Assembly: GCA_947629985.1 (NCBI GenBank)
Contig: CANRFV010000001.1
Coordinates: forward strand, 252,407 to 316,406
DNA: 64,000 nucleotides
Direction: 5' to 3'
Source: an uncultured Clostridia bacterium
GTDB taxonomy: Bacteria > Bacillota > Clostridia > Christensenellales > CAG-314
Position 1 is the stretch's first letter. The number at the start of each line of letters is the position of its first letter. The notes beneath the pieces are model-generated. The model was given only the letters and a program-made list of their open reading frames with translations. It was not told where the DNA came from and made no database searches. The translations under genes and the position numbers were made by a program. Below, in pieces: positions 1,108-49,988 of this stretch.

Positions 1108-1137
1108 AGCATACCCCCCCCCGAGTGGTTTTGTCAA
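1108..1137 (-). promoter_or_regulatory. Putative sigma-A promoter of fba with a G9 tract in the spacer
   Basis: Minus strand reads TTGACA-AAACCACTC-GGGGGGGGG-TATGCT (18-nt spacer), about 40 nt upstream of the fba ATG. Confidence 0.45.
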
Positions 1138-27800: not shown

Positions 27801-28001
27801 CGCAACTTCGGCGGATACAAAGTGTTCCGCGCGTTCCGCCATATCGATGGCTACCGATTTGGTAATATCGTCGTCAAACTTGACCGTAATGCCGTTTGCC
27901 GAGACGTTTACGCCCAAACTGACCATATTTACGGACGAGAAAATAATAAGCATAAATAACAGCGGCACAACCGCAATAAGCGCAATAACCGTTTTACGCA
28001 T
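24885..28001 (-). CDS. Large secreted or surface protein with Ig-like (Big_2-type) domain and beta-helix-like C-terminal half
   Basis: 1038 aa with an N-terminal TM/signal anchor (MRKTVIALIAVVPLLFMLIIF). Big_2-like segment LTSDNPQVADVDANGKL...ATSNDKGFTD. The rest is repetitive and beta-rich. 1-nt TGATG overlap with the upstream permease. Confidence 0.7.
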   Translation of the reverse strand: MRKTVIALIAVVPLLFMLIIFSSVNMVSLGVNVSANGITVKFDDDITKSVAIDMAERAEHFVSAEVAPNNASEKGYTLTSDNPQVADVDANGKLLVKSEGNATIVATSNDKGFTDSLNVSVYSTQPYGLRFFLNKDGADVLTADADGNYSADLSTGIYGFGAAITPDAFTDYSVEVTKGKADVDFGGKTVLLPFSGEVKLKVSVPDSIGNIERTVSLNVSMPSNCDLTVNGVANTSSVLLDKNSKTVSLYVERRIPGSEPVFTSEYATAVVREKIDSHRYIMDVTVNDSFDGERFVGQIAAGNAVAQVEFGFGDFDFALNSERPITDGKISVLNGVTTKFSAVPVVVADGVTFLWGVDGADRDVISVSADGKTCSVTAKRNSEFTLWAEARRDGELLCERKQITVSVVTRITNIIMPDEFGASHDLAMYYTVAGKVYDGQNKVQNRYLLNIRTVGSAAVTEFDADNLNCYISDETLGDIVVEDGKWYFVAKGSGKLTLTAEWKGAATFGGNARASVTFYVVHDAVAVSNAPQLVQATAAGDKVVLLNDIMLGTDANGAVLSLQERASMLGRMQSTYNTEWYKQDPKQSIDNAKVSYVMEFKNDVYGNGNTVNAEYFTAAWDSQDKPLIDTYKGPLYFVKYQEIASVAGQDNCAFLMRTDGVKLYGVNLRGCGDDKMSDSDGYNLSYLNLVGTTLEINASVQVINCRISNGRNVVRVYGGNRNGNNYFINDIADNKGCDNERITVVIQGCIISQGREFLVKVGANRALRAHGVSQAAPQLTDANGNPYPTQGSSVSNNYGKLYDDSYFYSHYVMTDLTIKDSVLETSGLFTIGVESNFAGDLLTTGSEQKYQGSVNENVAKMTSAWQQSGGTSFASVVRLQGDVRLYDWKDIALVDSSTLIESPSDNALGWLKLEVNKMLQHVASQSPYDALLINRDGKQFVHGGIAFYGGGRNYSQLDIDALNSSLGDYMHLNVNIDILKQVSDVNIQHQGDKLPLAAGVYDFNFYMYDRNSANSYSAQQRDTANGTKYGGVVKYEAF

Positions 28002-29680
28002 CAGATCTCCCCTCCTTCGAATTCGTAATATTTTTTGCCGAGTTTGCCCGTAAGGTAGAAATATGCCGCCACGGCAAACCCTATTGCAAGCGCGCCCGTT
28101 ACAACGTAGGTAATCCAGGACGAAGCGACGTGTTTAAGTTCGGTAAGCACGCGCAACGCCACAACAATACCGCCCACGGCAAACGACGCCAACATACCCG
28201 TTACAATAACGGTGCTTACGGCATTGCCGGATTCCTTTATTTCGCCGTCTTCTTCGGTGGAAAAGCGCGCATGATTGAAGTCGTACCGCGTTGCAACGCA
28301 TACGTTTACAAAGCCGAACAGCGCGCCCACCGCAAATATGAATATTGCGGAATACCACTGCACCATACCCGTTGCGGCAAGCACGACAGCGGATACCAAC
28401 TGCGACAGCACCGCCACAGCCATACTTAAAAATATCTTGGCAAAAAACACCTGTTTGTAACTTAGCGGAAAGGCTTTGACGGTGTAAAACATCTGACCGT
28501 CGCGGCTGACGTTGGTTGCGCAAAAAACATTTGTAAGCGCGCCGAACAACAACGTCAAAAACAGCGCAAGTTCCACATTAACTTGCAAACCGACAAGATT
28601 TTCCACCATAGATGTGCCTACGGTCATACAAAAATACACCATTAACGGCATTATTACCGCAACCGACAAATACGAAAACATATACGACGGGGTGCGGAAA
28701 ATCAACAAAAAGTCCTTTTTTACTATGGACGCAAAAACATTAGACGAAGCGGACATTTTGCCGCGCTTGATGAGATAATTTGCCGTGTCGGCGTTGCGCT
28801 GTTGTAGCGAACGTTGCAAAATAAGGCGAATTATTACCATTGCCAACGCAATGCAAACCGCAAGAGTAGCCGCTATGCCTATGCTTGCAACAGTTATGTT
28901 GCGCGACGTAAGCAGATCCACCAGCCACGCCGCGGGATACAGCACTTTTACTGCGGAAGCGATCGCGGTCATTACGCGCTCGTCAAAGAAATATTTAAGT
29001 TCGTCGCCCAACAACATTTGCTTGACGGCGGACAAAACTATCGAATACAGCCAAAACATAACGCCGAGTACAACCGTTACAAACACAAAGTTGAGTACAA
29101 AGCGCTGTTTCAAAAAGCGTTTTACAAGTTGCACGGGCAAGGCTATAAGCGACGCCAGCGCAATTGTTAACAACGGCAAAATAAAACACAAAATTGCCGT
29201 TACAAGCGCAAAACTCCAACTTTGGGGAGATTTGACGCATAGCGTGATGTTTACGGCAAGCACAGCCACAACGGAAATGAGCAGTTGATAGCCGTAAATG
29301 ATTATCAATTTGGATAAATACAGCGCCTTGGCGTCTACGGGCATTGCGGAAAACAGCCTTACGTCGTCCGCTTCGAATATCTGTCTGTTTATTTGCGAAA
29401 CGGCGCCTACCGTCATAAACAGCACTATTACCGAATACACCACGGTAAGCAACTCGTAGGTACGCGTTGCCACATCGGGCTGACGGTTGGTTTTTACCGC
29501 AAGGTACACGTCGATAAACCTGCCGAAAAACACCGTAAACAACACAACTATACCCACAAGCAACACAACGCCCAGCACAAAGCCCAGCGGATTGAATCTG
29601 CCGCGCCTGTACGGGTAAATTTTTTCCAAAAGGTGCTTTTTTAGCAGAGCGCGCGTTTGAGAAGAGACGTTTTTAGCCAT
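28001..29680 (-). CDS. Multi-spanning ABC-type exporter permease
   Basis: 559 aa from the internal ATG (MAKNVSSQ), with about 12 or more hydrophobic segments. Its start overlaps the ATPase stop (ATGGCTAA). Confidence 0.65.
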   Translation of the reverse strand: MAKNVSSQTRALLKKHLLEKIYPYRRGRFNPLGFVLGVVLLVGIVVLFTVFFGRFIDVYLAVKTNRQPDVATRTYELLTVVYSVIVLFMTVGAVSQINRQIFEADDVRLFSAMPVDAKALYLSKLIIIYGYQLLISVVAVLAVNITLCVKSPQSWSFALVTAILCFILPLLTIALASLIALPVQLVKRFLKQRFVLNFVFVTVVLGVMFWLYSIVLSAVKQMLLGDELKYFFDERVMTAIASAVKVLYPAAWLVDLLTSRNITVASIGIAATLAVCIALAMVIIRLILQRSLQQRNADTANYLIKRGKMSASSNVFASIVKKDFLLIFRTPSYMFSYLSVAVIMPLMVYFCMTVGTSMVENLVGLQVNVELALFLTLLFGALTNVFCATNVSRDGQMFYTVKAFPLSYKQVFFAKIFLSMAVAVLSQLVSAVVLAATGMVQWYSAIFIFAVGALFGFVNVCVATRYDFNHARFSTEEDGEIKESGNAVSTVIVTGMLASFAVGGIVVALRVLTELKHVASSWITYVVTGALAIGFAVAAYFYLTGKLGKKYYEFEGGEI

Positions 29681-30464
29681 TGGGCACGTCCTTTGCGCCG
29701 TTATCTGCGCGTTGTTCGGCTGCCGTGCGTTCGTGCCGTATAAAATATTCTTCAAAGTTGAAGGTGGGGTCGGTCAACATCTTTTCCTTTACGTTAAGCG
29801 TTTCGAGTTGCTGTCCCAAACCCATAATTACAACGCGGTCGCACAGTTGGGCAACTCGGTTGAGCGCGTGCGACGAAAAAATGATACAGTTGCCCTGTTG
29901 AGCGTACTTTATCATAAATTCGCGCACCGCTTCCATTGTGCGTGGGTCCAAACCCGTCAACGGCTCGTCCAATATCCACAATTTGGGACGATGAATAAGC
30001 GAACCCATCATACAGATTTTTTGGCGCATACCGTGCGAATACGAACTGATAAGGTTGTTTATCGCGTCGCCGAGACAAAACACTTCTTCCAACTCTTTAA
30101 GGCGGGCGGCGCGTTCTTCAACGGGCACTTTGTACACCGTTGCCAAAAAACCGATATATTCCATACCCGTCATTTTTACAAATACGGCGTGGTTGTCGGT
30201 TACAAAACCCATATCCGCCTTGGCGGCAAGGGGCTCTTTTTGCACGTCGTGTCCGTTGATGGTAATTGTGCCCTTGTCAAACGGCAACATACCTTCGATA
30301 CACTTGAGCGTTGTGGATTTGCCCGCGCCGTTGTGCCCCAGCAAACCGAAAATTTCGCCCGCGTAGCAACTGAACGATACGTCCTTTATTGCGTAATCGG
30401 CACGTTTGGAATATTTTTTGTACAGTCCTTCTACTTTAAGAACCTGTTGTCTGTCATCACTCAT
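29673..30464 (-). CDS. ABC transporter ATP-binding protein (ABC-2 / drug-exporter type)
   Basis: 263 aa. Walker A GHNGAGKST, signature SYSHGMRQK, Walker B LWILDEPLTGLD. Confidence 0.9.
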   Translation of the reverse strand: MSDDRQQVLKVEGLYKKYSKRADYAIKDVSFSCYAGEIFGLLGHNGAGKSTTLKCIEGMLPFDKGTITINGHDVQKEPLAAKADMGFVTDNHAVFVKMTGMEYIGFLATVYKVPVEERAARLKELEEVFCLGDAINNLISSYSHGMRQKICMMGSLIHRPKLWILDEPLTGLDPRTMEAVREFMIKYAQQGNCIIFSSHALNRVAQLCDRVVIMGLGQQLETLNVKEKMLTDPTFNFEEYFIRHERTAAEQRADNGAKDVPNG

Positions 30465-30476
30465 AATTCAGCGTTT

Positions 30477-30500
30477 GAGAGGCTTCCGCGGAAGCCTCTC
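30477..30500. other. Perfect 24-nt palindrome between a GGAGAG motif and the ABC ATPase start codon
   Basis: GAGAGGCTTC-CGCG-GAAGCCTCTC (10-bp stem), ending 12 nt upstream of the ATG at 30464. Confidence 0.6.
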
Positions 30501-30550
30501 TCCTTTATATATTTTTGTTATAAATATGTGCGTTATTTGGCATATTTTGC

Positions 30551-30586
30551 CAAAATGGGCAAAAGGGCATTGTAAAATAATGCCCT
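30551..30586 (-). terminator. Terminator-like hairpin after the lipoprotein gene
   Basis: Minus strand reads AGGGCATT-ATTTTAC-AATGCCCT followed by TTTGCCCATTTTG. Confidence 0.5.
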
Positions 30587-30608
30587 ATTAACCGAAAAGC
30601 CCGTTTAC

Positions 30609-31172
30609 TCAATACGCAAAAGTCAAAACGATGCTTACGTGCGACTCGCCCGATTCGTAACCGAAAGTCAAGCCCGTAACGTGTTCGGTATCGAAGGTAA
30701 TTTCGATTACAACGTCGCTGTCGGGGGTCTTGATGTCGCTTGCAATTTGCAAAAACTCCTTAATGCTGTTCTTGGGGACGGAGCCCTTGAAGGACGTTTC
30801 GGAAATGACGAAATCGTCATTGAAAAATTCATCTTCGAACTTGAGAGCGTTTACCGTTTCGACGGTTTGCGCCTTGAAAGTCGTTTCCGTTTCCGTATAG
30901 GGGTCGTCGGCGTCCAACGAATTGAGTTTGCTTTCCTTGCTTACCACGTCGTATTCGTCGCCGTTAGCGGTATACGTTTGCTCGCGCTTGTATTGCGTTA
31001 TTTTGTTGTGAGTAATTTCCACGGTTTGGGTTACTGCTGTGGCTTCGCATATCTTGGCGTATGCCGCCTTTAACAAGTCCCATTGAGTAGGCACTTTGTT
31101 TTCTACGCAGCCGCTAAGCACTACCGCCAACGCCGCCACGATACAAACAATCAATATAACTCTCTTTTTCAT
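30609..31172 (-). CDS. Lipoprotein, translationally coupled to the giant surface protein
   Basis: 187 aa. Signal peptide with an L-S-G-C lipobox (AVVLSGCVEN). 1-nt overlap with the stop of the 2353-aa gene. Confidence 0.75.
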   Translation of the reverse strand: MKKRVILIVCIVAALAVVLSGCVENKVPTQWDLLKAAYAKICEATAVTQTVEITHNKITQYKREQTYTANGDEYDVVSKESKLNSLDADDPYTETETTFKAQTVETVNALKFEDEFFNDDFVISETSFKGSVPKNSIKEFLQIASDIKTPDSDVVIEITFDTEHVTGLTFGYESGESHVSIVLTFAY

Positions 31173-34100
31173 TACAGTAAACCTCCTTTACGTGTTGCAA
31201 ATGCCACAGCGGCAAGCGCTTGAAGCGTGCCCAGCGTTACAAACAATCCGCCCAAAGCCGCGTCCGCAATGGTTACGGCTGTTTGTACTGTGCGGTCGTC
31301 GCCGTTTGCAATGGCGTTCCAACCGTCGGTAAGCGTGTAGCCTACTTCTATTTCGTCCATTACGTTAGCCAGCGATTCGCTGCTCAAATCTTGCAAAAGC
31401 GGCTCTATTTGCTGTAACAGACCCTTTATTTGTTTAAGTTGGTCAAAGTCGTCCACCGTCAAATCTTGTACGGATTTGCCTTCGGTAAGAGATTTAAGTT
31501 GCGCAAGCAGTTGAACCAATTCCTCGGTCATACCGTTTTCGTCGGTTACAACAACCGTAAACGTGCGGCTGCCGCTGTAATTTACTTCGTCGATCTCTAC
31601 CGTTACGGTGTATTCGCCGGGGGCGGTAATTGCCGCAATGGGCTTGGTTGCAAGCGGTTCGGTAACGCCGTTAAGCACAACAAAGCCTTGCAAAACAAGT
31701 TCTTCGCCCGTAAGTTGCGCGTTGAGTTTGCCGTTTTCCAATGTTTCGGCGCCGCTTATTCCAAAGTTGGCAGACGCGCTGTTGCTCAAATCCAACTTGG
31801 TTACGGTGTAGGTGCCGTCTACAACGGTTATTGTGTAGTTGCCGCTTTGCTCGCTTGCACTGCCCGTAATTACGTAAGAGCCTGCATTTGCGCCCGTGCT
31901 TGCAAATCCAAATGTTATCAGGTCTGCCAACACGTCGTTGTTTACCAATCTGCCTGACGTTACTGTTGCCGCGCCCAAGTCGTCAAGCGAAATTTCGTTG
32001 CCGTTGTATACGCGTGTGAAATCGGGCAATTTTACGGTAATATGTCTGGGAGATACCGTGTAGGTGCCGTCTACCGTTTGCAATTCGTAGTTGGACAATT
32101 CCGATTCCGGCGTGTCGATATGTACTACTATCGCATAGCCGCCGGTAACCACTGCGCTTGCAGATGTTACATTGCATTGCAACGTTACAAGCAACGCGCT
32201 TTGTTCTATCCAGCCGTCTACGTCGTAAGCGCCTTTCAAATCGGCGGTAGCGTCGCCGTAAACCGAACTAAGGTTGTGCGCGGTTACGGTAAGCGGACGT
32301 TTGGTTATTGTGTACGCGCCTGTGCCGTCGGTAAAGGTAATATCGTAGTTGCCGTCGGCGCATACGCCCTTGATGTTGTAACTGTCAACGCGTACGTTGT
32401 TGCTCTTTTGTTCCAATTCCAACGTGATTTCGGGGCGTTCGCTGCCTACCCATTCGCCATCGGTCTTTTCCCACAAGCCTTGTTGCAAAGTGCCTGCCAA
32501 ACCGTCGTAAACCTTGGTTTGCGGTTTGATCTTTACGGTAAGTTGCAATTGCGTAATTTCGTATTGACCGTCCGCGCCGAATTGAATGGTATAGTTGCTT
32601 GCGGATTGCGTTGCCGCGCCCTTTACGGCATAGGTGCCTACGTTCTTGGACGCATTGTCTATGCTAAGCGTAACAAGGTCATTCAAATTGTCGCCCTTAC
32701 CCAACGTGCTACCTTCCGCAAGGGTTGCGGTAAGTTCGGTGGCTTGGGGTACCGCGCCGTTGTATGCTCTGCTTGTGCTTGGCAGATTTACCGTAATGGC
32801 ACGGGGGTTGATGGTAAGCGTGGCTGTACGCGTTTCTTGGTCGTAGTTGTCGTGGCTGATAGTAGCCGTTATTTCGTACGAGCCGACGTCTCTTGCGCCG
32901 CTAAACGCCTGATCTTGTACCGTATAGGTAATTACCGCGCCTTCGGGTGCGCCCGTAACTTTGATTTCGTGCGTTTCGCCGTCGTAAGTTACGGTGTCGT
33001 TGTTGAACTCAAGGTCCTTAAACGCGGCGTTTGTTACGTTGTACTTACCGTTTACAAAACTTACCTTGTAGTTTTGCGGTTCGGCGTCGGCAAGTTGTAC
33101 GGTTATTGTGTATTCGCCTACTTCCGTTTGAGCGGACAAATCTTGTTCACAAGAGATGGCGATGTGTGTGCGGAATTCCGTTTCTTCGCCGTCCACCACG
33201 CCGTCTACCTTGAAAGTAAGCGCTTTGGGTTGCTCGCCGTAAACCGAACTAAGGTTGTCGGCGGTTACGGTTACTGCCTTTTTGTCGATTTGATACGAGC
33301 CGTCAGTAACTGTAATCTTGTAGTTACGTGCGGCGGCAGTTGCGGTTGCGGTTACGGTGTACGTGCCCACATCCTTGGCGGCGTCGGTTATGCTTATTGT
33401 TATTAGCGTACTCAACTCGTCGCCTGTGCCCAACGTGCTGCCGGAAGCAAGATTTGCTTGTATTGCGCTCGCTTGCGGCACAGCGCCGTTGTAATCGCGC
33501 GTGATAGACTGCAGTTCTACCGTAATGGGGCGTGCGGTTATTTCGTAAGCGTCAGTGCCTACCACTGGGGTAATTGTGTAGTTGGTGTTTTTGTTGCCGC
33601 CTTGGTAATTTACAATTTCCAAATTGTATTTGCCCACATCGCGCGGTTGCTGTCCACTTGCAAATTGAATTGTAAGGTCGAGATGATCCCCGGCGCAAAG
33701 GTCCGGTGCGTCAAACGCAGTTTGATCCAATTTGTCGTTGGTTACCGTATTGCCGTCGTAAACAACAGGTGTCTGTTTTTTGAGAGTTACCGTAATGGGC
33801 TTGGCAGTTACGGACCAATTGAATCTGTGCGTGTCGGTGTACACGCCGTTATCCAAGAAGTAGCCGTTTTCAAGGGTTATCGTAACGGTGTAATTGCCCA
33901 CGTTTTGCACCGAGTCTACGCTTGCGCTAACGGTTGCGTTTTCGATTCCCGAGAAATATTTTTCGAACAGACCTACGAGTTCTTCTGCGGTAAAATTAGC
34001 GCCCTTGTATACCAATGAGCCGATGCTTTCGGGTATGTCAAAAATATCTTTCGTTTCGGAGTAACCGCAACCCAATTCGCTGCAATAGCGCGTGGCATGT

Positions 34101-37100
34101 GCAACAGTGCTGCCACCGGGCGTGCCGTCGCCGTCTTGGCGAGTCCAATCCAAAGTGTGTTGAGAGTGCTCCAACTTCCAAGCGCCGCTAAGCCCTTCGG
34201 CGGCTGCCGTTGTTTCCCCCTGAAGTGAGTGTTTTCCACTTTCATGCTTGCCCGTTACCGTCTCTTTTTGGAATTCGATTCCGGGCAGGGTAAACGTGTC
34301 GCCGTCGCCTGCCTTATATGTAGAAACATATGTCTTGCCTTCTTTAAGCGGAGCAAGAGTATTGTGTACTTTGTCCCAAATGTGCGCTTCAAGCGTATAC
34401 TTGGTGTAGTTGCAGGAGTATTCGGTAGAAACGCCGTCGAACAGAGCGCTGTCTTGCAACGTTACGCCTGTACCGACAATGATCTTAGCAGTACCTGTTG
34501 TGTCGGTCGTTTGCACTGTGCCCAAAAACGTTGCACCATCTTGAATATTAAGCGTGCCGTTGACGATAAGGCTTGCATAGGGTTTGTACGATTGTTCAGG
34601 TCCTGTGCCTGCATTCTTAAGTTGGTCGCCCGTGGGATAGGTACGCTTGGCAACTTGGGGATCGGCAAAACTGTCATAAATGTGCAGTCCCGCACCGCCG
34701 CGCACATTGAGAGTAGCGCCGCTGTCAACGGTAAGTACAGAACCCGGCATTGCCTTGTAGGGATAGAGAATGTCGAACGCACCGCTCTTCAACGTGATAT
34801 CGTAGTTGTACGGAATGGAGAAATAAACCTTTTGGGTGTTTATTCCGAGCGGGAATTGCATATAACCGGCATAGGCATTGCCCGAAATTTCAATCGTTGT
34901 CTTGCCTACGTCCTGCACGTTGTTGCCGCTGCCCATATCGGGACGAGCGTGTTCATCATCATAGACGATATGTGCAGACGCGTTAAAGTTAAGAATTATT
35001 AGCGCGGCGTTTTCAAAATAGTCCATGCCTTCTTTGTTCTCTTTGACAAAGGAAATGAAGGGCGTATCAATGGTTGTAATGCTATCCCAGAAAAAGAGAC
35101 TTGCATGTCCCCACAGTTCGGCGCCGTGATGAATGGTAAAGCCGCCCTTGTTTTGCACGTTGACCATAGCGTACATCTTGAAGGGAGTAACGCCGGCAGT
35201 GAATGAAGCCTCCGTGTTTGTGCCGCCATTGTAGTCGTTGATCATAAAGGGCTGTGTAAGTCTGCCGCCCGACTGTACGTCGATACTGCCTTCGCCCGTT
35301 ACGCGACCGTAGACATCGAGATGTCCGCCCGATCCGACGGTAACCGTGGTATCTTCGCCTTGCAAAACAAGTTTCGAATAGTAGCCTGAAGTGTGTCCCT
35401 GAGCACCGACCTGAGATGGGTAATGAATGACGCCGCCGACAATAAGATTGCCTTCGATTATATTTGCGCCGGTAAGCGTAACGGTATAAACAGGGTCTTT
35501 GTAAATGCCGTCCGAAGCCCAGGAAACGCGCTCCTGCGCAGTTGCTTCCGTACCCATTGCATAATAGTCGCCCGCACGGTTGAAAGGAATTATGAGATTG
35601 ACGCCTGCGGGAACAGTGATGGCTGTTTCCAAGTCAACATTGTCTACCACAATAACATCTTTGTCGCTTCCATTGTCCGCGTCGTTCAATGCATTGTTAA
35701 TATCCGCCGGCGCGTAGAATTTACCACCATTACGCACGACATAAGTACCCGCCTTGTCGATAACGGCAATAATTTTTGTATAGCCCGTTCCCACGGTATA
35801 ATTATACTCTTGATCGTATGACACAAAGCGCGCGTTATCATAATCCCATTCAATGTCTCCGTCTTGAACCGTTTCCGGAGATTCGGCTTTTTGCGCCGCG
35901 CTCTCCTTGAGAGTTCCCGACACGGCTTTCCAACCATAGAAAGAGTCAGTTGCCTGTGGATATGCCGCGAATGTAAGTCTTGTGCCTGCATCAATCGGAC
36001 CATTATGGGCATCTACTCCGCCCTGTTTTACGGTGATATCAGACTTGTTTCCGCTTTCACCAGCCGTGTTTTGAACATCCCAATCAACATAGGCAGAACC
36101 GGAGAAGAAGGCTACATTGCGCACTGACATGCAGGCGTAACTACTGTTTGCTTTATTGCCTATTGCGTGAGCAATGTAGATGCTTGTATCGTCATTATCT
36201 CCCTTTCCGGTAATAGAAATTGTAACCTTATACCAATAGTTTTTCTCATCTACTTGTTCAGCATTAAAAGTTTTTGGCGCTATAAGATTACTGGCAGACG
36301 TCGAAAGACCCCAACCGAGATTTGTAGCAATACTTGACTTAAATCCTTTTACGCCCCAATCGGCATTCGTATATTTTTCATCGTTTGCACGCCAACCACT
36401 TGTATATGAAGTATCCGTGGGAATAGGAGAATCCATGCGGTATGCTGCATAACTGTATTTTGCTTTTGTATCGTCTGTATCCGCACCTGTAATACCGTAT
36501 CCATCAATATGGAATTCAAACGTAAAGGAACCGTTTCCTTTCACAGTAAATCCCAGTTGCGAAATAACGGGAGCCGCCAATGTGCGGTTCGGTTGATAAG
36601 AAATACCTGAAGAAAAGGCAAAACTACCATCGCCGTTGCCTGCGGGGTCAAAATACCAAGGATATTGTTGATCGTTAGTTACTGTAATTTCTTTTGAAAT
36701 GGGAGAAACAATCGAATCAAGCCCATCATTACCGCCATCCAATTTGATATATACATTGAAAGTAAATTGCTCTTCGACATAATATTCTTCCCCATAGCTA
36801 TAAGTAATAACAACCGCTTGGTTTTCAGTGATATCATTCAAAGAAAATCCCGTTTTTCCTGTCAATGTTTCACTAGCTACGTCTTTCCCATTTGAAGTTA
36901 TAGTGATGGTATTTGTAACAGAGTCGTAGTGATCAATCGTAACTAACAGATTGTTCTTTTTCCCATAAGGAAACTCGACTCTGCTTTTATTTGAGATTGT
37001 TTCTTCATCTTGTGCCACGCTGTCTACAGACTTTGTTATTGAAACTTTGGGTGGAATGGCAATTTCTTGAAGTATAAAGCGTATACTGCCTTCGGAGTAC

Positions 37101-38233
37101 GCATCTTTATCAGGTTCAGCAATTTTGCCATCTGCGTCGAATTTGACCAAAGTTGAATTACCACCAGATAATGCGTGAACATTATGAGTACCACCCGAAT
37201 GAACACCGGTCATTTGTTCTGGGACTAGCGTGGAATTTATTTGTTCATGCGGTTTTACCGCAAAAGCAACAGGCAAACCGACAGGAACGGTAGCGTATGC
37301 TCCACCGTCCACGTTTTCCAATTTGATACCATTTTCGATAATAAAATCCGCTTGTTTAGCCAATGTACTCAAAATGCCCGGAAGGTAATAAGCGTCGCCA
37401 AGCCGTTCATCCCACTTTACCGACGCTTGCGTAGTTTGATATTCTGATTCATTTTTCAGCGCAACTTTACTAAGTGTAAATTCAAGTGCAGTCGGTATTG
37501 CAGAACTAGTTGAACCGCTACGAGAATCCATTGGCGTTTGAAAAATTATTTCGACCCTGTGATACTTGTTTTTGATTGTACGAAAAATCAAATTTGTCTG
37601 AACTTCAGGACCAGAAAAAGATGTATCCAGATATTTTACTCCGTCAACCAAAACACTTAAGTTACCATAATAATACCCTTCTGTGGTAACAGAAAATTTA
37701 TAATCAAAGGTAAACCACTTTTCTCCCACAAATTCAAAACAAATAGGAATATCTTGCTTTGAAGTAAAATTATAGCTATCGGCACTCTTAATCGTATAAG
37801 TGCCCGCTTCTCCGTCTACCGTCCAACCTTCGGCTGTTGTTGTTATTTTGTCTCCGTCATTTTTGAAAAACCTTGCATGCAGGGTTGTGGATTCGGTAGG
37901 CATGGTATAAGAATAGGTCGCTTCGTACGAAAGCGGGGTATTCTCGTCCGTTAAATACCAATATGCAAAAACGTAACCTTCGGTAGGTTGTGCCGTAAGT
38001 TGCACTGCCGAATTTTGTTCGACGCTCTCTTCTACTGAAGCGCCGCCGCCCTGTGCAGTTTTGCCATTGACGGTAGCACTGCCGCCCTCGTCTGCGAACA
38101 ATGTGAGAGTTGCGGTCTCTGCCGCTACTGCTTGATCCTGCACAATTGCGAACAGCCCCACTGTTGCCAACGACAACACGAGTACCGCACACAACACTAT
38201 GAGCGTGATCTTCCAATGTTTTGTCCTTGTCAT
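31172..38233 (-). CDS. Giant (2353 aa) repeat-rich cell-surface protein / putative adhesin
   Basis: One uninterrupted ORF. It has an N-terminal signal/TM segment and two InlB-B-repeat-like segments (GYVFAYWY, DSFYGWKA). About 9-10 tandem units of ~90 aa resemble YDG/MBG repeats (VG.Y.I ... NY.I ... Y.IT.+.ITV). A coiled segment and a C-terminal TM helix plus RK tail follow, with no LPXTG. Confidence 0.85.
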   Translation of the reverse strand: MTRTKHWKITLIVLCAVLVLSLATVGLFAIVQDQAVAAETATLTLFADEGGSATVNGKTAQGGGASVEESVEQNSAVQLTAQPTEGYVFAYWYLTDENTPLSYEATYSYTMPTESTTLHARFFKNDGDKITTTAEGWTVDGEAGTYTIKSADSYNFTSKQDIPICFEFVGEKWFTFDYKFSVTTEGYYYGNLSVLVDGVKYLDTSFSGPEVQTNLIFRTIKNKYHRVEIIFQTPMDSRSGSTSSAIPTALEFTLSKVALKNESEYQTTQASVKWDERLGDAYYLPGILSTLAKQADFIIENGIKLENVDGGAYATVPVGLPVAFAVKPHEQINSTLVPEQMTGVHSGGTHNVHALSGGNSTLVKFDADGKIAEPDKDAYSEGSIRFILQEIAIPPKVSITKSVDSVAQDEETISNKSRVEFPYGKKNNLLVTIDHYDSVTNTITITSNGKDVASETLTGKTGFSLNDITENQAVVITYSYGEEYYVEEQFTFNVYIKLDGGNDGLDSIVSPISKEITVTNDQQYPWYFDPAGNGDGSFAFSSGISYQPNRTLAAPVISQLGFTVKGNGSFTFEFHIDGYGITGADTDDTKAKYSYAAYRMDSPIPTDTSYTSGWRANDEKYTNADWGVKGFKSSIATNLGWGLSTSASNLIAPKTFNAEQVDEKNYWYKVTISITGKGDNDDTSIYIAHAIGNKANSSYACMSVRNVAFFSGSAYVDWDVQNTAGESGNKSDITVKQGGVDAHNGPIDAGTRLTFAAYPQATDSFYGWKAVSGTLKESAAQKAESPETVQDGDIEWDYDNARFVSYDQEYNYTVGTGYTKIIAVIDKAGTYVVRNGGKFYAPADINNALNDADNGSDKDVIVVDNVDLETAITVPAGVNLIIPFNRAGDYYAMGTEATAQERVSWASDGIYKDPVYTVTLTGANIIEGNLIVGGVIHYPSQVGAQGHTSGYYSKLVLQGEDTTVTVGSGGHLDVYGRVTGEGSIDVQSGGRLTQPFMINDYNGGTNTEASFTAGVTPFKMYAMVNVQNKGGFTIHHGAELWGHASLFFWDSITTIDTPFISFVKENKEGMDYFENAALIILNFNASAHIVYDDEHARPDMGSGNNVQDVGKTTIEISGNAYAGYMQFPLGINTQKVYFSIPYNYDITLKSGAFDILYPYKAMPGSVLTVDSGATLNVRGGAGLHIYDSFADPQVAKRTYPTGDQLKNAGTGPEQSYKPYASLIVNGTLNIQDGATFLGTVQTTDTTGTAKIIVGTGVTLQDSALFDGVSTEYSCNYTKYTLEAHIWDKVHNTLAPLKEGKTYVSTYKAGDGDTFTLPGIEFQKETVTGKHESGKHSLQGETTAAAEGLSGAWKLEHSQHTLDWTRQDGDGTPGGSTVAHATRYCSELGCGYSETKDIFDIPESIGSLVYKGANFTAEELVGLFEKYFSGIENATVSASVDSVQNVGNYTVTITLENGYFLDNGVYTDTHRFNWSVTAKPITVTLKKQTPVVYDGNTVTNDKLDQTAFDAPDLCAGDHLDLTIQFASGQQPRDVGKYNLEIVNYQGGNKNTNYTITPVVGTDAYEITARPITVELQSITRDYNGAVPQASAIQANLASGSTLGTGDELSTLITISITDAAKDVGTYTVTATATAAARNYKITVTDGSYQIDKKAVTVTADNLSSVYGEQPKALTFKVDGVVDGEETEFRTHIAISCEQDLSAQTEVGEYTITVQLADAEPQNYKVSFVNGKYNVTNAAFKDLEFNNDTVTYDGETHEIKVTGAPEGAVITYTVQDQAFSGARDVGSYEITATISHDNYDQETRTATLTINPRAITVNLPSTSRAYNGAVPQATELTATLAEGSTLGKGDNLNDLVTLSIDNASKNVGTYAVKGAATQSASNYTIQFGADGQYEITQLQLTVKIKPQTKVYDGLAGTLQQGLWEKTDGEWVGSERPEITLELEQKSNNVRVDSYNIKGVCADGNYDITFTDGTGAYTITKRPLTVTAHNLSSVYGDATADLKGAYDVDGWIEQSALLVTLQCNVTSASAVVTGGYAIVVHIDTPESELSNYELQTVDGTYTVSPRHITVKLPDFTRVYNGNEISLDDLGAATVTSGRLVNNDVLADLITFGFASTGANAGSYVITGSASEQSGNYTITVVDGTYTVTKLDLSNSASANFGISGAETLENGKLNAQLTGEELVLQGFVVLNGVTEPLATKPIAAITAPGEYTVTVEIDEVNYSGSRTFTVVVTDENGMTEELVQLLAQLKSLTEGKSVQDLTVDDFDQLKQIKGLLQQIEPLLQDLSSESLANVMDEIEVGYTLTDGWNAIANGDDRTVQTAVTIADAALGGLFVTLGTLQALAAVAFATRKGGLL

Positions 38234-38355
38234 AATTTCTCCTCTTTTATCTACATTTGTTTAGTTGCTATTTTGTTGAACGTATGCGCGTTTTTTGTCA
38301 AAAAAAGCCTTTTTTGACGAAAAATGGCATAAAATTAAGATAATATATCAAACTT

Positions 38356-38386
38356 ATAATACCCCCCCCCCGAAGCGATATGTCAA
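38356..38386 (-). promoter_or_regulatory. Putative promoter of the giant gene with a G10 tract in the spacer
   Basis: Minus strand reads TTGACA-TATCGCTTC-GGGGGGGGGG-TATTAT (19-nt spacer), about 120 nt upstream of the ATG. Confidence 0.5.
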
Positions 38387-38649
38387 GCAAGTAAAAGTAA
38401 ATTTTAGGTAAACTGAAAAATATTTTGCAAATATCATTATTGAAAATAACCTTGAAAAACGACTTGAAACGACAATTTTAGGCAAAAATCCCGCCGCTAC
38501 GCACGCGGAAAAGTCTGCCGAAAGTGTACGTCAACGTTGCCGGTGTGATTAGCGTACCGTCGGGCGGCGCCAATGTCGGGGCGGTTACGTGTAAAATGTA
38601 CAGCGCTGCGGGGCAACAACATTACACCGCCGCGTGCGCGGAAAACAAC

Positions 38650-38690
38650 AAAAAAACGCGCCTGTACCCGACAACGGGCGCAAGCGCGTT
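38650..38690 (-). terminator. Rho-independent terminator after alaS
   Basis: Minus strand reads AACGCGC...GCGCGTT, enclosing GCCCG-TTGT-CGGG(T)(A)C, followed by TTTTTTTG. Confidence 0.6.
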
Positions 38691-38730
38691 AATTTATTGT
38701 TATTGTAATAAATAATATAAAATACTATTA

Positions 38731-40521
38731 CTATTTGCTGTGCAACTCCGCCTTGATACGGCGCACACCGCTGCCGGACGACTGCTCCTTGGTGATGACG
38801 AAATGTCCCAACTCGCCCGTGCTGTTGGCGTGCGGTCCGCCGCAAATTTCCTTGCTGAAATTGCCCATTGTGTACACCTTGACGACTTGACCGTATTTGT
38901 CGCCGAACAGACCGATAGCGCCCGTTTTACGCGCGTCGTCGAGCGGCATTTCTTCGCAAGTGATGGGCAGGTCGCTTTCGATTGCCCAATTGACAAGGCG
39001 CTCGGTTTCGGCAATTTCGTCCGCCGTCATAGGGCGACCGAAACTGAAATCGAAACGCAGGCGTTCGGTGGTGATGTTGCTGCCCTTTTGCTTTACTTCG
39101 TCGCCCAATACCCTGCGCAAAGCCGCTTGCAACAGGTGGGTTGCCGTGTGCAGGCGGGTTATTTCGACGCCGCCGCCTTCTGCCATGCCGCCCTTGAAGC
39201 GTTGCTCGCTGCCCGCGTGAGACTTTGCCTGATGTTCGGCAAACTTTTGGCGAAAGCCTTCTACGTCTACTTGGTAGCCGTTTTCCGCGGCGAGTTCTAC
39301 CGTCATTTCCACGGGGAAGCCGAACGTATCGTACAATTTGAACGCGGTGCCGCCAGGGACTACATTGCCGGGTATGTGAGAGATTACTTTGAAAAATTCC
39401 TTTTCGCCGGCGACAAGAGTTTTGCTGAACTTTTCTTCTTCCTTGACCAATTCGTCCACTATCTTGGCGCGGTTGTCGGTAAGTTCGGGGTAGACATCCT
39501 TGTAGACGTCTACGTACACTTGCGCAATTTGCACAATCGAGCCCTTGGGCATATCAAGCGAATTTGCCATACGCACGGCGCGGCGAATAAGCCTGCGCAA
39601 CACGTAGCCTTGGTCTACATTGCTGGGCACTACGCCTACGGGATCGCCCAACAAAAAGGTTGCGGTACGTACGTGATCGGCAATTATGCGCATAGCGCGG
39701 GTGGTTTTGGCGTCGGCGCCGTAGTTTTTGCCCGAAAGTTGCTGTATTGTTTGCAGGGCGCGCTCGAACAGGTCGATATCGTAAACCGACTTGTAACCGT
39801 TCAGCACGCACACGGTGCGCTCTAAGCCCATGCCCGTATCGACATTTTTTTGCACCAGTGGCAAATAGGTGCCGTCCGCCTGACGGTTGAATTGCATAAA
39901 GACGTTATTCCATATTTCAAGATACTTGCCGCAATCGCAGGACGGGTCGCAATGCTCGCCGCAGGCGGGTTTGCCCGTATCCCAAAAGATTTCGGTATCG
40001 GGGCCGCAAGGACCCGTTGTGCCGGCTATCCACCAATTGTTCTTTTTGGGAAGGTAATATATGCGATCGGCGGGTATGCCGCACTGCTGCCACGTTTGCG
40101 CCGAATCTTCGTCGCGCGGAGCGTCGTCGTCGCCGGCAAATACCGTTACCGACAGGCGGTTGACGTCCAACCCGAGATAGGCGGGATCGGTAAGGAATTG
40201 GTAACTCCACTGTATGGATTGACGGTTGAAATAGTCGCCCAACGACCAATTGCCCAACATTTCGAAGAAGGTAAGGTGGCTGTCGTCGCCCACTTCTTCG
40301 ATATCGCCCGTGCGGACGCACTTTTGCACGTCGGTAAGGCGCGTGCCGCAGGGGTGCTTTTGCCCCATAAGGTAGGGAATAAGCGGATGCATACCTGCCG
40401 TTGTAAACAGTACGGACGGATCGTTTTCCGGAATGAGACTTGCCGATTGTATTACGGCGTGCCCGCGTTGCTTAAAAAAATCGAGATATTTTTCTCGTAA
40501 AAACTGCGATGTAATTTTCAT
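38731..40521 (-). CDS. alaS: Alanine--tRNA ligase, compact form (596 aa)
   Basis: Starts at MKITSQFLREKYLDFF with a GAGG RBS. Class II AlaRS N-terminal motifs (FTTAGM, FFEMLGNWSLGDYF). Editing-site motifs HTATHLL and CGGPH. It ends right after the editing core. Confidence 0.9.
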   Translation of the reverse strand: MKITSQFLREKYLDFFKQRGHAVIQSASLIPENDPSVLFTTAGMHPLIPYLMGQKHPCGTRLTDVQKCVRTGDIEEVGDDSHLTFFEMLGNWSLGDYFNRQSIQWSYQFLTDPAYLGLDVNRLSVTVFAGDDDAPRDEDSAQTWQQCGIPADRIYYLPKKNNWWIAGTTGPCGPDTEIFWDTGKPACGEHCDPSCDCGKYLEIWNNVFMQFNRQADGTYLPLVQKNVDTGMGLERTVCVLNGYKSVYDIDLFERALQTIQQLSGKNYGADAKTTRAMRIIADHVRTATFLLGDPVGVVPSNVDQGYVLRRLIRRAVRMANSLDMPKGSIVQIAQVYVDVYKDVYPELTDNRAKIVDELVKEEEKFSKTLVAGEKEFFKVISHIPGNVVPGGTAFKLYDTFGFPVEMTVELAAENGYQVDVEGFRQKFAEHQAKSHAGSEQRFKGGMAEGGGVEITRLHTATHLLQAALRRVLGDEVKQKGSNITTERLRFDFSFGRPMTADEIAETERLVNWAIESDLPITCEEMPLDDARKTGAIGLFGDKYGQVVKVYTMGNFSKEICGGPHANSTGELGHFVITKEQSSGSGVRRIKAELHSK

Positions 40522-46214: not shown

Positions 46215-47447
46215 TTACGGCAACAGGTCGTTTTCGCGCGGCAATGTTCCGCGCGCCACCACCATATCCACGCGTTTGTATTTATTGGCGCGAATGAGCA
46301 ACGTTTTTACCAATTTGCCGTCGGCGTAATAATTGAGATAGGACTTGCTTTCCACGCCGTCCGAACCGGGCGTTATTATCTGCGTTTGGTCGGCGTACAC
46401 AAGTTGGGGATATTTGACGGGGTCGTTTACCACCACCGTTTGAAATTTGTCGCGTTTTTCGCTGCTTACACGCTCGACAAAATATTTGTTGGGCTTGCCG
46501 TAAATATCGAAACGCACAACTCCGTCGTAAACGTGCGCGGCAATGTACACGGGAAATTCGGAGTCGTTTGTAAAGGTCAAGTCGGCGGCGCCGTAACTTA
46601 CCATTGCGTCGAACCCCGCCTTTACGTAGGACGATACCAGCGAGTGAGCGACCGCTTGGGGCAAAAACTCCGCCAACAACAATGCGTTGTACAACGTTGT
46701 GGATACCTGACACACTCCGCCGCCCACGCCGTCGGCGTAATTGCCGTTGAGTATTACTTTGGCGTTTTTGTAGCCCGTTTGCAACGTGCGCTCGCCCACC
46801 GTATCGTTAAACGAAAACGTTTGACCCGCCTGTACCGTTGTGCCGTTAATCGAGGCTACGGCTTTGCGAATGTTGTACGTTCTGTTGGCGTTGGCCGCGT
46901 TAAACGACGTGGAAAAGGACGCTTTGAGTACGGTATTTTGCTTCAATTGCCGCACTGTTACAGCCTGATCCGTTACGACGGGCAAATTGATATTGATGGT
47001 TTTGCCGCGCGAAGTAAGCGCAGTTTCGAACAGTTTTCGCACGTCGATATGCACGCCGTTTTGTTCGCGTTCGTACTCGAAGCCCTTTGCCGAAAAGTTG
47101 ACGCGGGCGTCCCGACGCGTTTGCTCGACATATTCGAAATGCCTTACAACGGACATAAAATCGGGCAAAATATAGTTGCAAATTGCGTCAAAAGGCAACC
47201 CCATCTGCAATAATCGGCAATATAAGTGCATTTTTTGCCGCGCGCCCGAATAAAACTCTCGCTGCTCAGCCTGATCGGCGCAGGCGGAAATTTTGTCGCT
47301 TAGGCGATACGAGCAAACGTCGCCGTCGTACACCGCGTCGAACCGAACGTCCCACGGACAAAGCGTTTGCGCGCTTGCCTGCGCATATACAAAAACGCTC
47401 GCCAACATTGCGAGCGTAATTACGGTAAAAATAAACTTTTTTGTCAT
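46215..47447 (-). CDS. VanW-family protein with C-terminal G5-like domain
   Basis: 410 aa with an N-terminal signal peptide and the VanW motif GGGVCQVSTTLYNA. ATGA overlap with the upstream PHP gene. Confidence 0.85.
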   Translation of the reverse strand: MTKKFIFTVITLAMLASVFVYAQASAQTLCPWDVRFDAVYDGDVCSYRLSDKISACADQAEQREFYSGARQKMHLYCRLLQMGLPFDAICNYILPDFMSVVRHFEYVEQTRRDARVNFSAKGFEYEREQNGVHIDVRKLFETALTSRGKTININLPVVTDQAVTVRQLKQNTVLKASFSTSFNAANANRTYNIRKAVASINGTTVQAGQTFSFNDTVGERTLQTGYKNAKVILNGNYADGVGGGVCQVSTTLYNALLLAEFLPQAVAHSLVSSYVKAGFDAMVSYGAADLTFTNDSEFPVYIAAHVYDGVVRFDIYGKPNKYFVERVSSEKRDKFQTVVVNDPVKYPQLVYADQTQIITPGSDGVESKSYLNYYADGKLVKTLLIRANKYKRVDMVVARGTLPRENDLLP

Positions 47448-48253
47448 ATTCCCAATATAATCCGAGTGTATGCCGTGGGCGAAAAACTTTTTGCGCCGAG
47501 TTCCACGCCGTGCGTGTAATCGTGAAAATCGCTGCCGCCGGTTACGATAAGTTTGTATTTTTTTGCCATTTTGGTGTAAAACTTACGCTCGGTACTATTG
47601 TGTGTAAAATAGTTCGCTTCGATACCACCCAGACCGGACAGAACAAGCGGTTTGAGAAATTTTTCAAATTCCACGGGATTTAAGCGCAGTTGCTTGGGAT
47701 GCGCCAGCACGGGAATACCGCCGAAACGCAATGTAAAACGTATGGCTTCGACGGGGGTAAGTCGGCGCGTATTTACAAAGCAGGATTTGCCCGTACCCAA
47801 ATACTTGTCGAACGCTTCCGGCACGTCTTTGCAATAGCCGAGTCGCACCATTTCGCGAGCAATGACCGCGCGACCGACCGAACCGTTGGCACGCAAGGCG
47901 TCCAGATCCACCGCCATTCCGAGTTGATTGAGTTTTTCGACAATCTTGGCGTTGCGAACATCGCGAAATTGCGCTATTACCTGCATTTCCTGTGTAAATT
48001 CGGGCGCAGTTACGTCGATATTGTACGCCAAAATGTGTACGTCCTGCCCCGCAACCGCCGAAAGTTCGGCTCCGACGACAAATTTCATCCCCACCTGTCG
48101 GGCATATTTTTGCGCGCGTATACTGCCGCCGAACGTGTCGTGATCGGTAATGGATATGCAGTTGAGACCGCGATTTTTTGCCATGTCAACTATTTCTTCG
48201 GGGCTGAAAATGCCGTCCGAACAGTTGCTGTGTATGTGTAAGTCGCATTTCAT
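47444..48253 (-). CDS. PHP-domain phosphoesterase (TrpH/YciV-like)
   Basis: 269 aa from the internal ATG (MKCDLHIHSNCSDG). PHP histidine motifs HIHS and DHD. Confidence 0.85.
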   Translation of the reverse strand: MKCDLHIHSNCSDGIFSPEEIVDMAKNRGLNCISITDHDTFGGSIRAQKYARQVGMKFVVGAELSAVAGQDVHILAYNIDVTAPEFTQEMQVIAQFRDVRNAKIVEKLNQLGMAVDLDALRANGSVGRAVIAREMVRLGYCKDVPEAFDKYLGTGKSCFVNTRRLTPVEAIRFTLRFGGIPVLAHPKQLRLNPVEFEKFLKPLVLSGLGGIEANYFTHNSTERKFYTKMAKKYKLIVTGGSDFHDYTHGVELGAKSFSPTAYTRIILGI

Positions 48254-48367
48254 ACCGAAACTATACCAAATTTTGCCGATGTTGTCAACCGTGCGCGTTT
48301 GCGCGGGTGGCAGCCATTTTACGCGCGGCGGCTTACGCGGCAATACAAACGCTGCGCGGTGATTGCG

Positions 48368-48403
48368 CAAAAAAAGGCTATTGCAAATTTGCGGCAATAG
48401 CCT
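48368..48403 (-). terminator. Rho-independent terminator after udk
   Basis: Minus strand reads AGGCTATTGC-9-nt loop-GCAATAGCCT followed by T7. Confidence 0.7.
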
Positions 48404-48465
48404 GTTTGTACGGCGTATCGAGCGCCGTTGTGAGTTGAATTTGGGGGGGGCAAATTAAGCAAACG

Positions 48466-49343: not shown

Positions 49344-49418
49344 TGGGGTATCGCCAAGCGGTAAGGCAACGGATTCTGACTCCGTCATCCGCAGGTTCAA
49401 ATCCTGCTACCCTAGCCA
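49344..49418 (+). tRNA. tRNA-Gln (anticodon CTG), CCA encoded
   Basis: Hand-folded. Acceptor TGGGGTA/TACCCTA with U1-A72; anticodon arm ACGGA-TTCTGAC-TCCGT; T-arm GCAGG-TTCAAAT-CCTGC; discriminator G plus CCA. Confidence 0.9.
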
Positions 49419-49536
49419 AGCGGGCAACTGCGCTTTTGGTTGCAACGGAAAGGAAGCACTTTTGGGTGCTCCCTTTTCCTTTGCTGTCCTTTTGCTTGTT
49501 GCCCTTTTCTGTCGTGTAGACAGGACAGTTTGAATT

Positions 49537-49684
49537 ATGTAGCACTCCACTGCGTTTCGTTTACCTTGCGCTTCGCTTAGGACAAATCCTGCTACCCTAG
49601 CCAAGCGGGCAACTGCGCTTTTGGTTGCAACGGAAAGGAAGCACTTTTCAGTGCTCCCTTTTCCTTTGCTGTCCTTTTGCTTGT
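49537..49684 (+). repeat. Module + duplicated 3' end of tRNA-Gln plus trailer (copy 2)
   Basis: 49537-49583 is ATGTAGCACTCCACTGCGTTTCGTTTACCTTGCGCTTCGCTTAGGAC. 49583-49684 repeats 49398-49499 (T-loop C56 to CCA plus the two trailer hairpins). Confidence 0.85.
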
Positions 49685-49826
49685 ACACCATATAAGTCAA
49701 TATCATAACTTGCGGGGCCCCCAATAAGACGTAGCGCAGCAGTCTTGTTGGGGAGAGGAGCAACCGCCCGACAGCGGTACCGTCTGCGCTTGCACAGGCG
49801 AGGCTGTCATAGCGCGAGTTGCGACG

Positions 49827-49953
49827 ATGTAGCACTCCACTGCGTTTCGTTTACCTTGCGCTTCGCTTAGGACAAATCCTGCTACCCTAGCCAAGCGGGC
49901 AACTGCGCTTTTGGTTGCAACGGAAAGGAAGCACTTTTCAGTGCTTCCTTTTC
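49827..49953 (+). repeat. Module + duplicated 3' end of tRNA-Gln plus trailer (copy 3)
   Basis: Same module at 49827-49873. 49873-49953 again repeats the tRNA-Gln 3' end and trailer. Confidence 0.85.
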
Positions 49954-49988
49954 GTTTATATTGAACTATATTGTACTATATTACAAAT

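Follow-up and report, generated by a model that had tools for sequence, protein, structure and literature searches.

The closest described systems to the locus reported here are promoters in which a homopolymer lies in or next to the −35/−10 spacer. In Mycoplasma hyorhinis, a poly-A tract in this spacer turns the vlp surface lipoprotein genes on and off. At the Helicobacter pylori gene sabA, the tract lies beside, not within, the core promoter spacer. This poly-T tract, a promoter-proximal homopolymer, has been described as a ‘rheostat’ that gives graded expression of the adhesin (PMC4081817). At Neisseria meningitidis porA, the length of the spacer sets transcription in steps, from high through medium to none (PMC7864442). 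In Treponema pallidum, a poly-G tract between the −35 and −10 elements of tp0126 makes transcription optimal at a spacing of 17 nt, which is also the optimum for the poly-G tract of porA, and at tprE/G/J/L tracts of up to 8 G are permissive while longer ones are not, lengths of 7 to 11 coexisting in vivo (PMC7864442). Invertons have been described in gut Bacteroidales and Clostridia as giving commensals stochastic on/off control of their surface structures (PMC8748976, PMC11892184).

We analysed a 64-kb stretch of DNA (64,000 nucleotides, here called the window) from an uncultured gut Clostridia bacterium, in which a G10 tract lies upstream of a gene for a giant surface protein. Read directly on the minus strand, the order is TTGACA (38386–38381), TATCGCTTC (38380–38372), G10 (38371–38362) and TATTAT (38361–38356). 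A preliminary description of this DNA had the strand, the coordinates and the arrangement right; its claim that the G10 tract exactly occupies the −35/−10 spacer of a near-consensus promoter agrees with the sequence, where the hexamers match the consensus at 6/6 and 5/6 positions and the spacer is 19 nt long (9 nt plus G10). The features of the locus are as follows.

38640–38700, minus strand: GC-rich hairpin followed by a T7 run, the likely terminator of alaS, by direct reading
38381–38386, minus strand: −35 hexamer TTGACA, 6/6 against the consensus, by direct reading and pattern match
38372–38380, minus strand: non-G part of the spacer, TATCGCTTC, 9 nt, by direct reading
38362–38371, minus strand: G10 homopolymer (C10 on the plus strand), the proposed hypermutable element, by direct reading and run count
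38356–38361, minus strand: −10 hexamer TATTAT, 5/6 against the consensus, abutting the G tract without a gap
38234–38349, minus strand: 5′ UTR of about 116 nt (predicted start) with an A/U-rich hairpin and the ribosome-binding site AGAGGAG
38291–38305 and 38310–38324, minus strand: the two arms of the 5′ UTR hairpin
31172–38233, minus strand: gene for the giant surface protein, 2353 aa, by ORF and domain matches
30609–31172, minus strand: gene for a 187-aa lipoprotein (lipobox LSGC), its start overlapping the stop of the giant gene
29673–30464, minus strand: ABC ATPase gene, probably co-transcribed
28001–29680, minus strand: gene for a permease-like protein with 13 TM segments, probably co-transcribed
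24885–28001, minus strand: gene for a 1038-aa Big_2 surface protein, probably co-transcribed

The ATG of the giant gene, with AGAGGAG just 5′ of it, lies 122 nt past the end of the −10 hexamer. The tract itself is non-coding, being located 129–138 nt upstream of this ATG (at 38233) and spanned by no ORF on the gene strand. Since alaS ends upstream in a GC hairpin and a T7 run, the giant gene needs a promoter of its own, and the terminator likely isolates it from transcription coming from upstream; a simple terminator scan made no call at 38640–38700, where the loop exceeds the limit of that scan. A promoter-like site of lower quality, TTGCAA-18-TAAAAT (38430–38401), is found 45 nt upstream of the giant-gene promoter and could be a source of giant-gene transcription independent of the tract. 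The hairpin in the 5′ UTR (MFE −18 kcal/mol, z = −2.07) is marginally stabler than shuffled sequences.

The giant protein begins with a hydrophobic signal or TM segment, carries one divergent InlB B-repeat-like domain and at least five MBG domains, and ends in a C-terminal TM anchor. The target had been called a 2353-aa adhesin-like protein, and the signal peptide, the MBG/InlB repeats and the C-terminal anchor found here bear this out. Judging by their common strand and tight spacing, the genes at 24885–31172 (minus strand) are probably co-transcribed with the giant gene. Only two relatives turned up in a protein search with the first 600 aa of the giant protein as query. The closest relative of the N-terminus, and the only close one found, has 79% identity (P0001); the relative on contig L130 begins within the gene, so that its promoter is not covered. 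A search of metagenome contigs with the N-terminal 500 aa gave a single match, weak and irrelevant. The gene family is rare outside rabbit-gut-like samples in ENA and Logan.

We give a probability of about 0.72 to the best reading of the giant-gene tract, a slipped-strand promoter switch of the porA/tp0126 type. The promoter would be of the sigma-A (sigma-70-type) class, its spacer made up of 9 fixed nt and a G homopolymer that abuts the −10 hexamer. Slipped-strand mispairing at replication would add or remove G residues; a 17-nt spacer (G8) would be optimal, an 18-nt spacer (G9) would reduce transcription, and a 19-nt spacer (G10) would be poor or off. The outcome would be heritable, reversible and stepwise variation in transcription of the giant MBG protein, and the downstream lipoprotein, ABC and Big_2 genes would probably vary with it. 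Frequent slippage within populations, a transcription start set by these hexamers and an activity that depends on tract length are the parts of the scheme that we infer. In its G10 state the promoter in the window would presumably be low or off, and on this reading the giant surface protein would be mostly low or off (G10/G9), a state that would plausibly suit a costly, immunogenic protein of 2353 aa. The parts of the phase-variable reading that can be tested in sequence all hold, and the promoter stands as a well-supported candidate.

The resemblance to porA is close, both being surface-protein genes with a G homopolymer in the spacer of a sigma-70-type promoter. However, porA belongs to a Gram-negative pathogen, whereas here the tract abuts the −10 hexamer after a fixed 9-nt segment; moreover, the porA optimum is the longer tract (G11), whereas the optimum proposed here is G8. 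T. pallidum is a spirochaete in which the tprL tract overlaps the −10 region, whereas the tract described here lies in the spacer and its host is a spore-former-like gut Clostridia. The sporulation genes YabP and YqfD are found in syntenic contigs and indicate a member of the Clostridia, and the nearest named relatives are the rabbit-gut MAGs GCA_947601445.1 and GCA_947625185.1. Treponema MAGs are themselves among the matches listed in the architecture scan described below. With vlp the locus shares the homopolymer in the promoter spacer, and tandem paralogous lipoprotein genes with tracts of their own also occur in one of the stretches of that scan (L109); unlike the present tract, that of vlp is poly-A, not poly-G, and its host belongs to the Mollicutes. 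The sabA tract differs in working through the geometry of the DNA relative to upstream elements. Invertons are alike in biological role and unlike in mechanism, since there a site-specific recombinase works on inverted repeats to either side of the promoter. The mechanism proposed here is already established; what goes beyond the textbook is the fixed layout of N9 and Gn abutting the −10 hexamer, the use of this layout upstream of a conserved aldolase/sugar-ABC operon, and its breadth in uncultured gut lineages.

The aldolase operon carries the second copy of the layout in the window, one that the preliminary description had overlooked.

1108–1137, minus strand: sister promoter, TTGACA (1137–1132), AAACCACTC, G9 (1122–1114) and TATGCT (1113–1108), with a spacer of 18 nt
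131–1066, minus strand: class II ketose-bisphosphate aldolase gene, 41 nt downstream of the sister promoter

Common to both promoters are the −35 hexamer, nine non-G bases, a G run and a −10 hexamer without a gap, and each of the two TTGACA-N9-G8+ copies in the window is suitably spaced from a downstream gene that has a good ribosome-binding site. The encoded aldolase clears only the generic ‘ketose-bisphosphate aldolase’ threshold. Because genes for a 413-aa lipoprotein (lipobox LASC), a fused permease and a MalK-like ATPase follow 3′ of the aldolase in longer related contigs, we take it to head a sugar-uptake/catabolism operon. With the design also present upstream of an aldolase/sugar-transport operon, the putative switch is therefore not specific to adhesins. 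Such an operon is an odd target for classical on/off antigenic variation, and ‘volume control’ or a purely structural role fits it equally.

Relatives at different distances retain the tract at both genes. In the 79%-identical orthologue of the giant gene (contig L129), the promoter reads TTGACA-ATTCAGAT-G8-TATCAT with a spacer of 16 nt, about 100 nt before the ATG; its flanks are unrelated in sequence to those in the window, and the G8 tract is kept. Three further lineages keep the tract upstream of the aldolase gene, where the following promoters were found.

Aldolase of 94% identity: AAACCCCAC-G9-TATGCT, spacer 18 nt
Aldolase of 87% identity: AAACCCCAC-G10-TATCTT, spacer 19 nt
Aldolase of 89% identity (L132/L133): AACAGTC-G8TGG-TATCCT, spacer 18 nt
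Aldolase of 89% identity (L134, the same protein as in L132/L133): AACAGTC-G10-TATCCT, spacer 17 nt

That the tract is kept while its length and surroundings drift is what one would expect if selection acted on mutability or on the G-richness of the spacer itself. As an observation in its own right, L132 (9953–9963) and L133 encode an aldolase identical to that of L134 (1528–1537) and have an interrupted tract, G8-T-GG, in place of the pure G10; such an interruption should make the tract more stable.

The ordinary spacer in this lineage is 17 nt, a length found in 15 of the 25 TTGACA/T...TAnnnT matches that the window and three related 21-kb loci contain, and shared by the clear promoters of tRNA-Gln (49304) and of a PHP gene (48288). 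Since the canonical spacer is 17 nt, G10 is 2 nt too long, and G8 therefore gives canonical spacing in both N9 promoters. The spacers observed were 16, 18 and 19 nt at the giant gene and 17, 18 and 19 nt at the aldolase promoter, and they straddle the 17-nt optimum. The suggestion that loss of one or two G residues would bring the spacer to an optimal 17–18 nt is consistent with this norm, G8 and G9 corresponding to 17 and 18 nt.

The design also recurs far outside this lineage. Scanning one genome per GTDB species for TTGACA-N(3-15)-G≥9-TATNNT, we found at least 122 sites in at least 120 stretches. The variable N gap served as an internal control, since chance matches are expected to be flat over gap lengths; among the 122 matches listed, the non-G part of the spacer was 9 nt in 49, 8 nt in 11 and 10 nt in 17. 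The −10 hexamer was TATAAT in 56 of the 122 matches listed, against about 1 in 16 expected. The total spacer was 18 or 19 nt in 63 of them, a peak that is partly ascertainment, because the pattern required at least nine G. For the same reason G8 sites, the presumed ON state, fall outside the class counts; within the N9 class, the matches listed comprise 21 G9 and 20 G10 sites. The species of the window is not among the matches listed.

The hosts of the matches listed are overwhelmingly gut or host-associated. Uncultured hosts include Bacilli, Clostridia, Christensenellaceae, Oscillospiraceae, Lachnospiraceae, Borkfalkia, Saccharibacteria, Treponema, Selenomonadales and Mucispirillum, and the isolates are Anaerocaecibacter muris (431x), Streptococcus infantis, S. 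pneumoniae, Streptobacillus notomytis and a Helicobacter species. Among the matches listed, 77 of the 103 downstream proteins (75%) have a hydrophobic N-terminus of the signal, lipoprotein or TM type. Such an N-terminus is found in 153 of 525 other genes at the same loci (p = 7e-18) and in 8 of 30 genes behind G-free consensus promoters (p = 3e-6). Pfam matches downstream include the BspA-type LRR, the Listeria-Bacteroides repeat, Big_2, DUF6273, pilin N-methyl and four ABC ATPases. The same loci contain more G-tract promoters, with imperfect −35 boxes. We consider it possible, at a little under even odds, that TTGACA, about 9 nt, G8-10 and TATAAT form a widespread promoter class that is the main simple-sequence ‘phasome’ of many uncultured gut lineages. 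These would comprise gut Bacillota (Christensenellales-like Clostridia, Oscillospiraceae and RF39-like Bacilli), Saccharibacteria and gut spirochaetes, and the targets would be surface proteins and lipoproteins, with the conserved aldolase/sugar-uptake operon added in the lineage of the window. Our reserve about this wider claim stems from the literature: keyword searches did not find the design described in gut Firmicutes, and such searches cannot prove the absence of a prior description.

Several of the scanned stretches hold observations of their own. In Streptobacillus notomytis (L109, 3085–4945), two tandem paralogous genes for small lipoproteins each lie behind a G-tract promoter of their own (G10 and G11), and their 5′ UTRs are almost identical, an arrangement that resembles the multi-gene variable lipoprotein families of mycoplasmas. 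In Streptococcus pneumoniae (L025, 1468–1497), TTGACA-N9-G9-TATACT lies upstream of a gene for a 604-aa protein with a PspA/PspC-like signal peptide (MNKKKMILTSLASVAILGAGFVASQP...), a possible case of a homopolymer-controlled surface-protein promoter in a well-studied pathogen. One Oscillospiraceae contig carries two near-identical copies of TTGACA-CGACAAGAC-G10-TATAAT about 35 kb apart (L024, 3958–3988, and L082, 396–426), with no obvious ORF within 400 nt downstream; a repeated non-coding RNA or a mobile element may be under their control. A Rubritalea MAG (L014) has seven G/C runs of 7–13 nt in 8 kb, most of them outside a promoter context. Two of these lie within a repeated motif, TTTCAATGTGCTGTGGGCC-A-Gn-CACAGTGGTTCATGCGGG; this poly-G element of a Verrucomicrobia genome is of another kind.

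The regularity of the arrangement can also be read differently: the G tract might be a fixed structural element of the promoter, acting through rigidity or twist of the spacer, sensitivity to supercoiling or the G at −14 of an extended −10, with the length differences being neutral noise or error. The tract always abuts the −10 hexamer and in the modal class starts 9 nt past the −35; at least four lineages retain it in front of an aldolase operon, which is metabolic, and the listed spacers cluster at 18–19 nt, not at 17 nt, a sign, perhaps, that G-rich spacers have another optimum. We nevertheless regard this explanation as unlikely. If the length were a structural optimum, it should be fixed, but it differs among lineages (G8–G10, spacers of 16–19 nt) as well as among near-identical assemblies, as described below. 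Long G runs (8 nt or more) are inherently unstable, so that keeping one carries a mutational cost unless changes in its length can be tolerated or are of use. The bias towards surface proteins, too, is the signature of contingency loci.

To compare tract lengths within the species, we retrieved same-species contigs from ENA and Logan assemblies by exact-protein look-up. Over about 97 kb of pairwise alignment against the window there were 2 SNPs and 4 indels, and all four indels fell within three G/C tracts. At the giant gene, the window and ERZ27249609 (L006/L136) both carry G10 and ERZ27249348 (L007) carries G9, the sole indel across 7.8 kb of this locus; only three independent assemblies cover the promoter (two G10, one G9), and contig L137 ends about 100 nt before the tract. 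The aldolase tract is G8 in 8 assemblies (two at ~14.7x coverage) and G9 in 6. For the P0004 strain, G8 is found there in each of three assemblies (two at ~14.7x), and L002, L003 and L004 agree on G9. A/T runs of 7–9 nt in the compared regions (about 16, including a T9) showed no length difference. The Logan contig L150 starts exactly within the aldolase tract, a break of the kind that heterogeneity produces in an assembly graph. A comparison of tract length among strains, which the preliminary description had called for, yields G10 against G9 among near-identical assemblies and G8 in the 79%-identical orthologue. Since G8 dominates the better-covered assemblies, the aldolase operon would on this reading be mostly ON.

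Illumina indel errors increase in long G runs. Most of the assemblies that differ in length have only 2.7–5x coverage, and some of their G8, G9 and G10 calls could be homopolymer errors. The length differences might accordingly be errors of sequencing or assembly altogether, with a tract that is real but stable, in which case the gene would be driven by a poor promoter with a 19-nt spacer or by another promoter. This appears more doubtful still than a structural role. The calls agree within groups (G8 in the three P0004 assemblies; G9 in L002, L003 and L004), MAGs of related species from NCBI also show different lengths, and the T9 run and the A/T runs of 7–8 nt are free of differences. Nor would errors explain the conservation of the tract in diverged promoters or the architecture of the whole class, which includes isolate genomes. 

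Long G/C runs are clear outliers in the window. Runs of 4 nt number 131 and runs of 5 nt 16, lengths of 6 and 7 nt are absent, and beyond these come only three runs, one each of 8, 9 and 10 nt (on the plus strand, C9 at 1114–1122, C10 at 38362–38371 and G8 at 48443–48450). Extrapolating the decay of this spectrum gives about 0.01 expected runs of at least 9 nt, so the figure of about 0.4 offered earlier for chance runs of this length was too generous. G8 positions number 6, against a mean of 0.58 in dinucleotide-preserving shuffles, and TTGACA-N9-G8 occurs twice in the window against 0.00 in such shuffles.

The third of these runs stands apart from the other two.

48443–48450, plus strand: third tract, G8 on the plus strand (C8 on the udk sense strand), with no recognisable promoter around it

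It lies 16 nt past the udk stop codon, 5′ of the udk terminator hairpin, is kept in a 97%-identical strain (L140), and is C8 in the window but C9 in a DRR855147 contig (L141). A reading of this tract as a plus-strand promoter, TTGTGA-N9-G8-CAAATT, was rejected, as the spacing is not kept in the diverged strain L140. A tract that is conserved and variable in length without a promoter indicates that G tracts may have other roles in this genome, but the idea that the hexamers at the giant gene are coincidental and the tract there serves as a protein-binding site, a recombination hotspot or is a two-colour poly-G artefact is very improbable, given two occurrences of TTGACA-N9-G8 against 0.00 expected, both before genes with good ribosome-binding sites, the sharp spacing peak and TATAAT enrichment among the 122 matches listed, and the unique sequence around the tract in assemblies from at least three projects.

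Other candidate explanations were rejected outright. An inverton is contradicted by the lack of inverted repeats flanking the promoter: within 37800–38900, such repeats occur only as the 5′ UTR hairpin and an intragenic palindrome. For a riboswitch, T-box or other leader RNA there was no Rfam match in the 5′ region, and only three tRNAs pass the gathering threshold window-wide. Translational (frameshift) phase variation by a simple-sequence repeat does not apply to a tract outside the coding sequence, and a single G run is incapable of forming an intramolecular G-quadruplex. Finally, a two-colour poly-G artefact does not fit a tract that is internal, has unique flanks, appears in assemblies of several projects and is conserved in related species.

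The phase-variation literature that we found on gut commensals deals almost entirely with invertons, and homopolymer-spacer switches are described mainly in Neisseria, Treponema, Mycoplasma and Helicobacter pathogens. The present locus, its sister promoter and the 122 listed sites indicate that the same trick is used in uncultured gut Firmicutes and other host-associated lineages, its indicated targets being giant adhesin-like proteins, lipoproteins and at least one sugar-utilisation operon. If this is true, gut commensals use homopolymer switches beside invertons, including for metabolic bet-hedging. The consensus sequences of MAGs would then conceal a layer of expression heterogeneity, and homopolymer ‘errors’ at such sites would be worth keeping rather than polishing out. 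The pattern of at least eight G abutting the −10 hexamer and starting 9 nt past the −35 can be used to nominate variable surface antigens in uncultured bacteria.

Some further features of the window were noted in passing. The promoter of the PHP-domain gene (48253–48293, minus strand) matches the consensus, TTGACA-17-TATAGT, with TG at −15/−14. The ATG of this gene (MKCDLHIH...) likely starts 6 nt past the −10 hexamer, which suggests a leaderless mRNA, and the long ORF that begins with TTG (47444–48397) is probably over-extended. The tRNA-Gln gene (49344–49418) is followed by dispersed direct repeats of about 85–130 nt with 95–98% identity, located at 49398–49499, 49537–49684 and 49827–49957 (region 49344–49960). 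The repeats appear to contain the 3′ end of the tRNA, several Logan contigs stop there, and they may be remnants of repeated integration sites. The alaS gene (38731–40521, minus strand) encodes a short AlaRS of 596 aa (NCBIfam PRK01584, 920 bits) that is without the C-terminal domain of the usual bacterial enzyme of about 870 aa.
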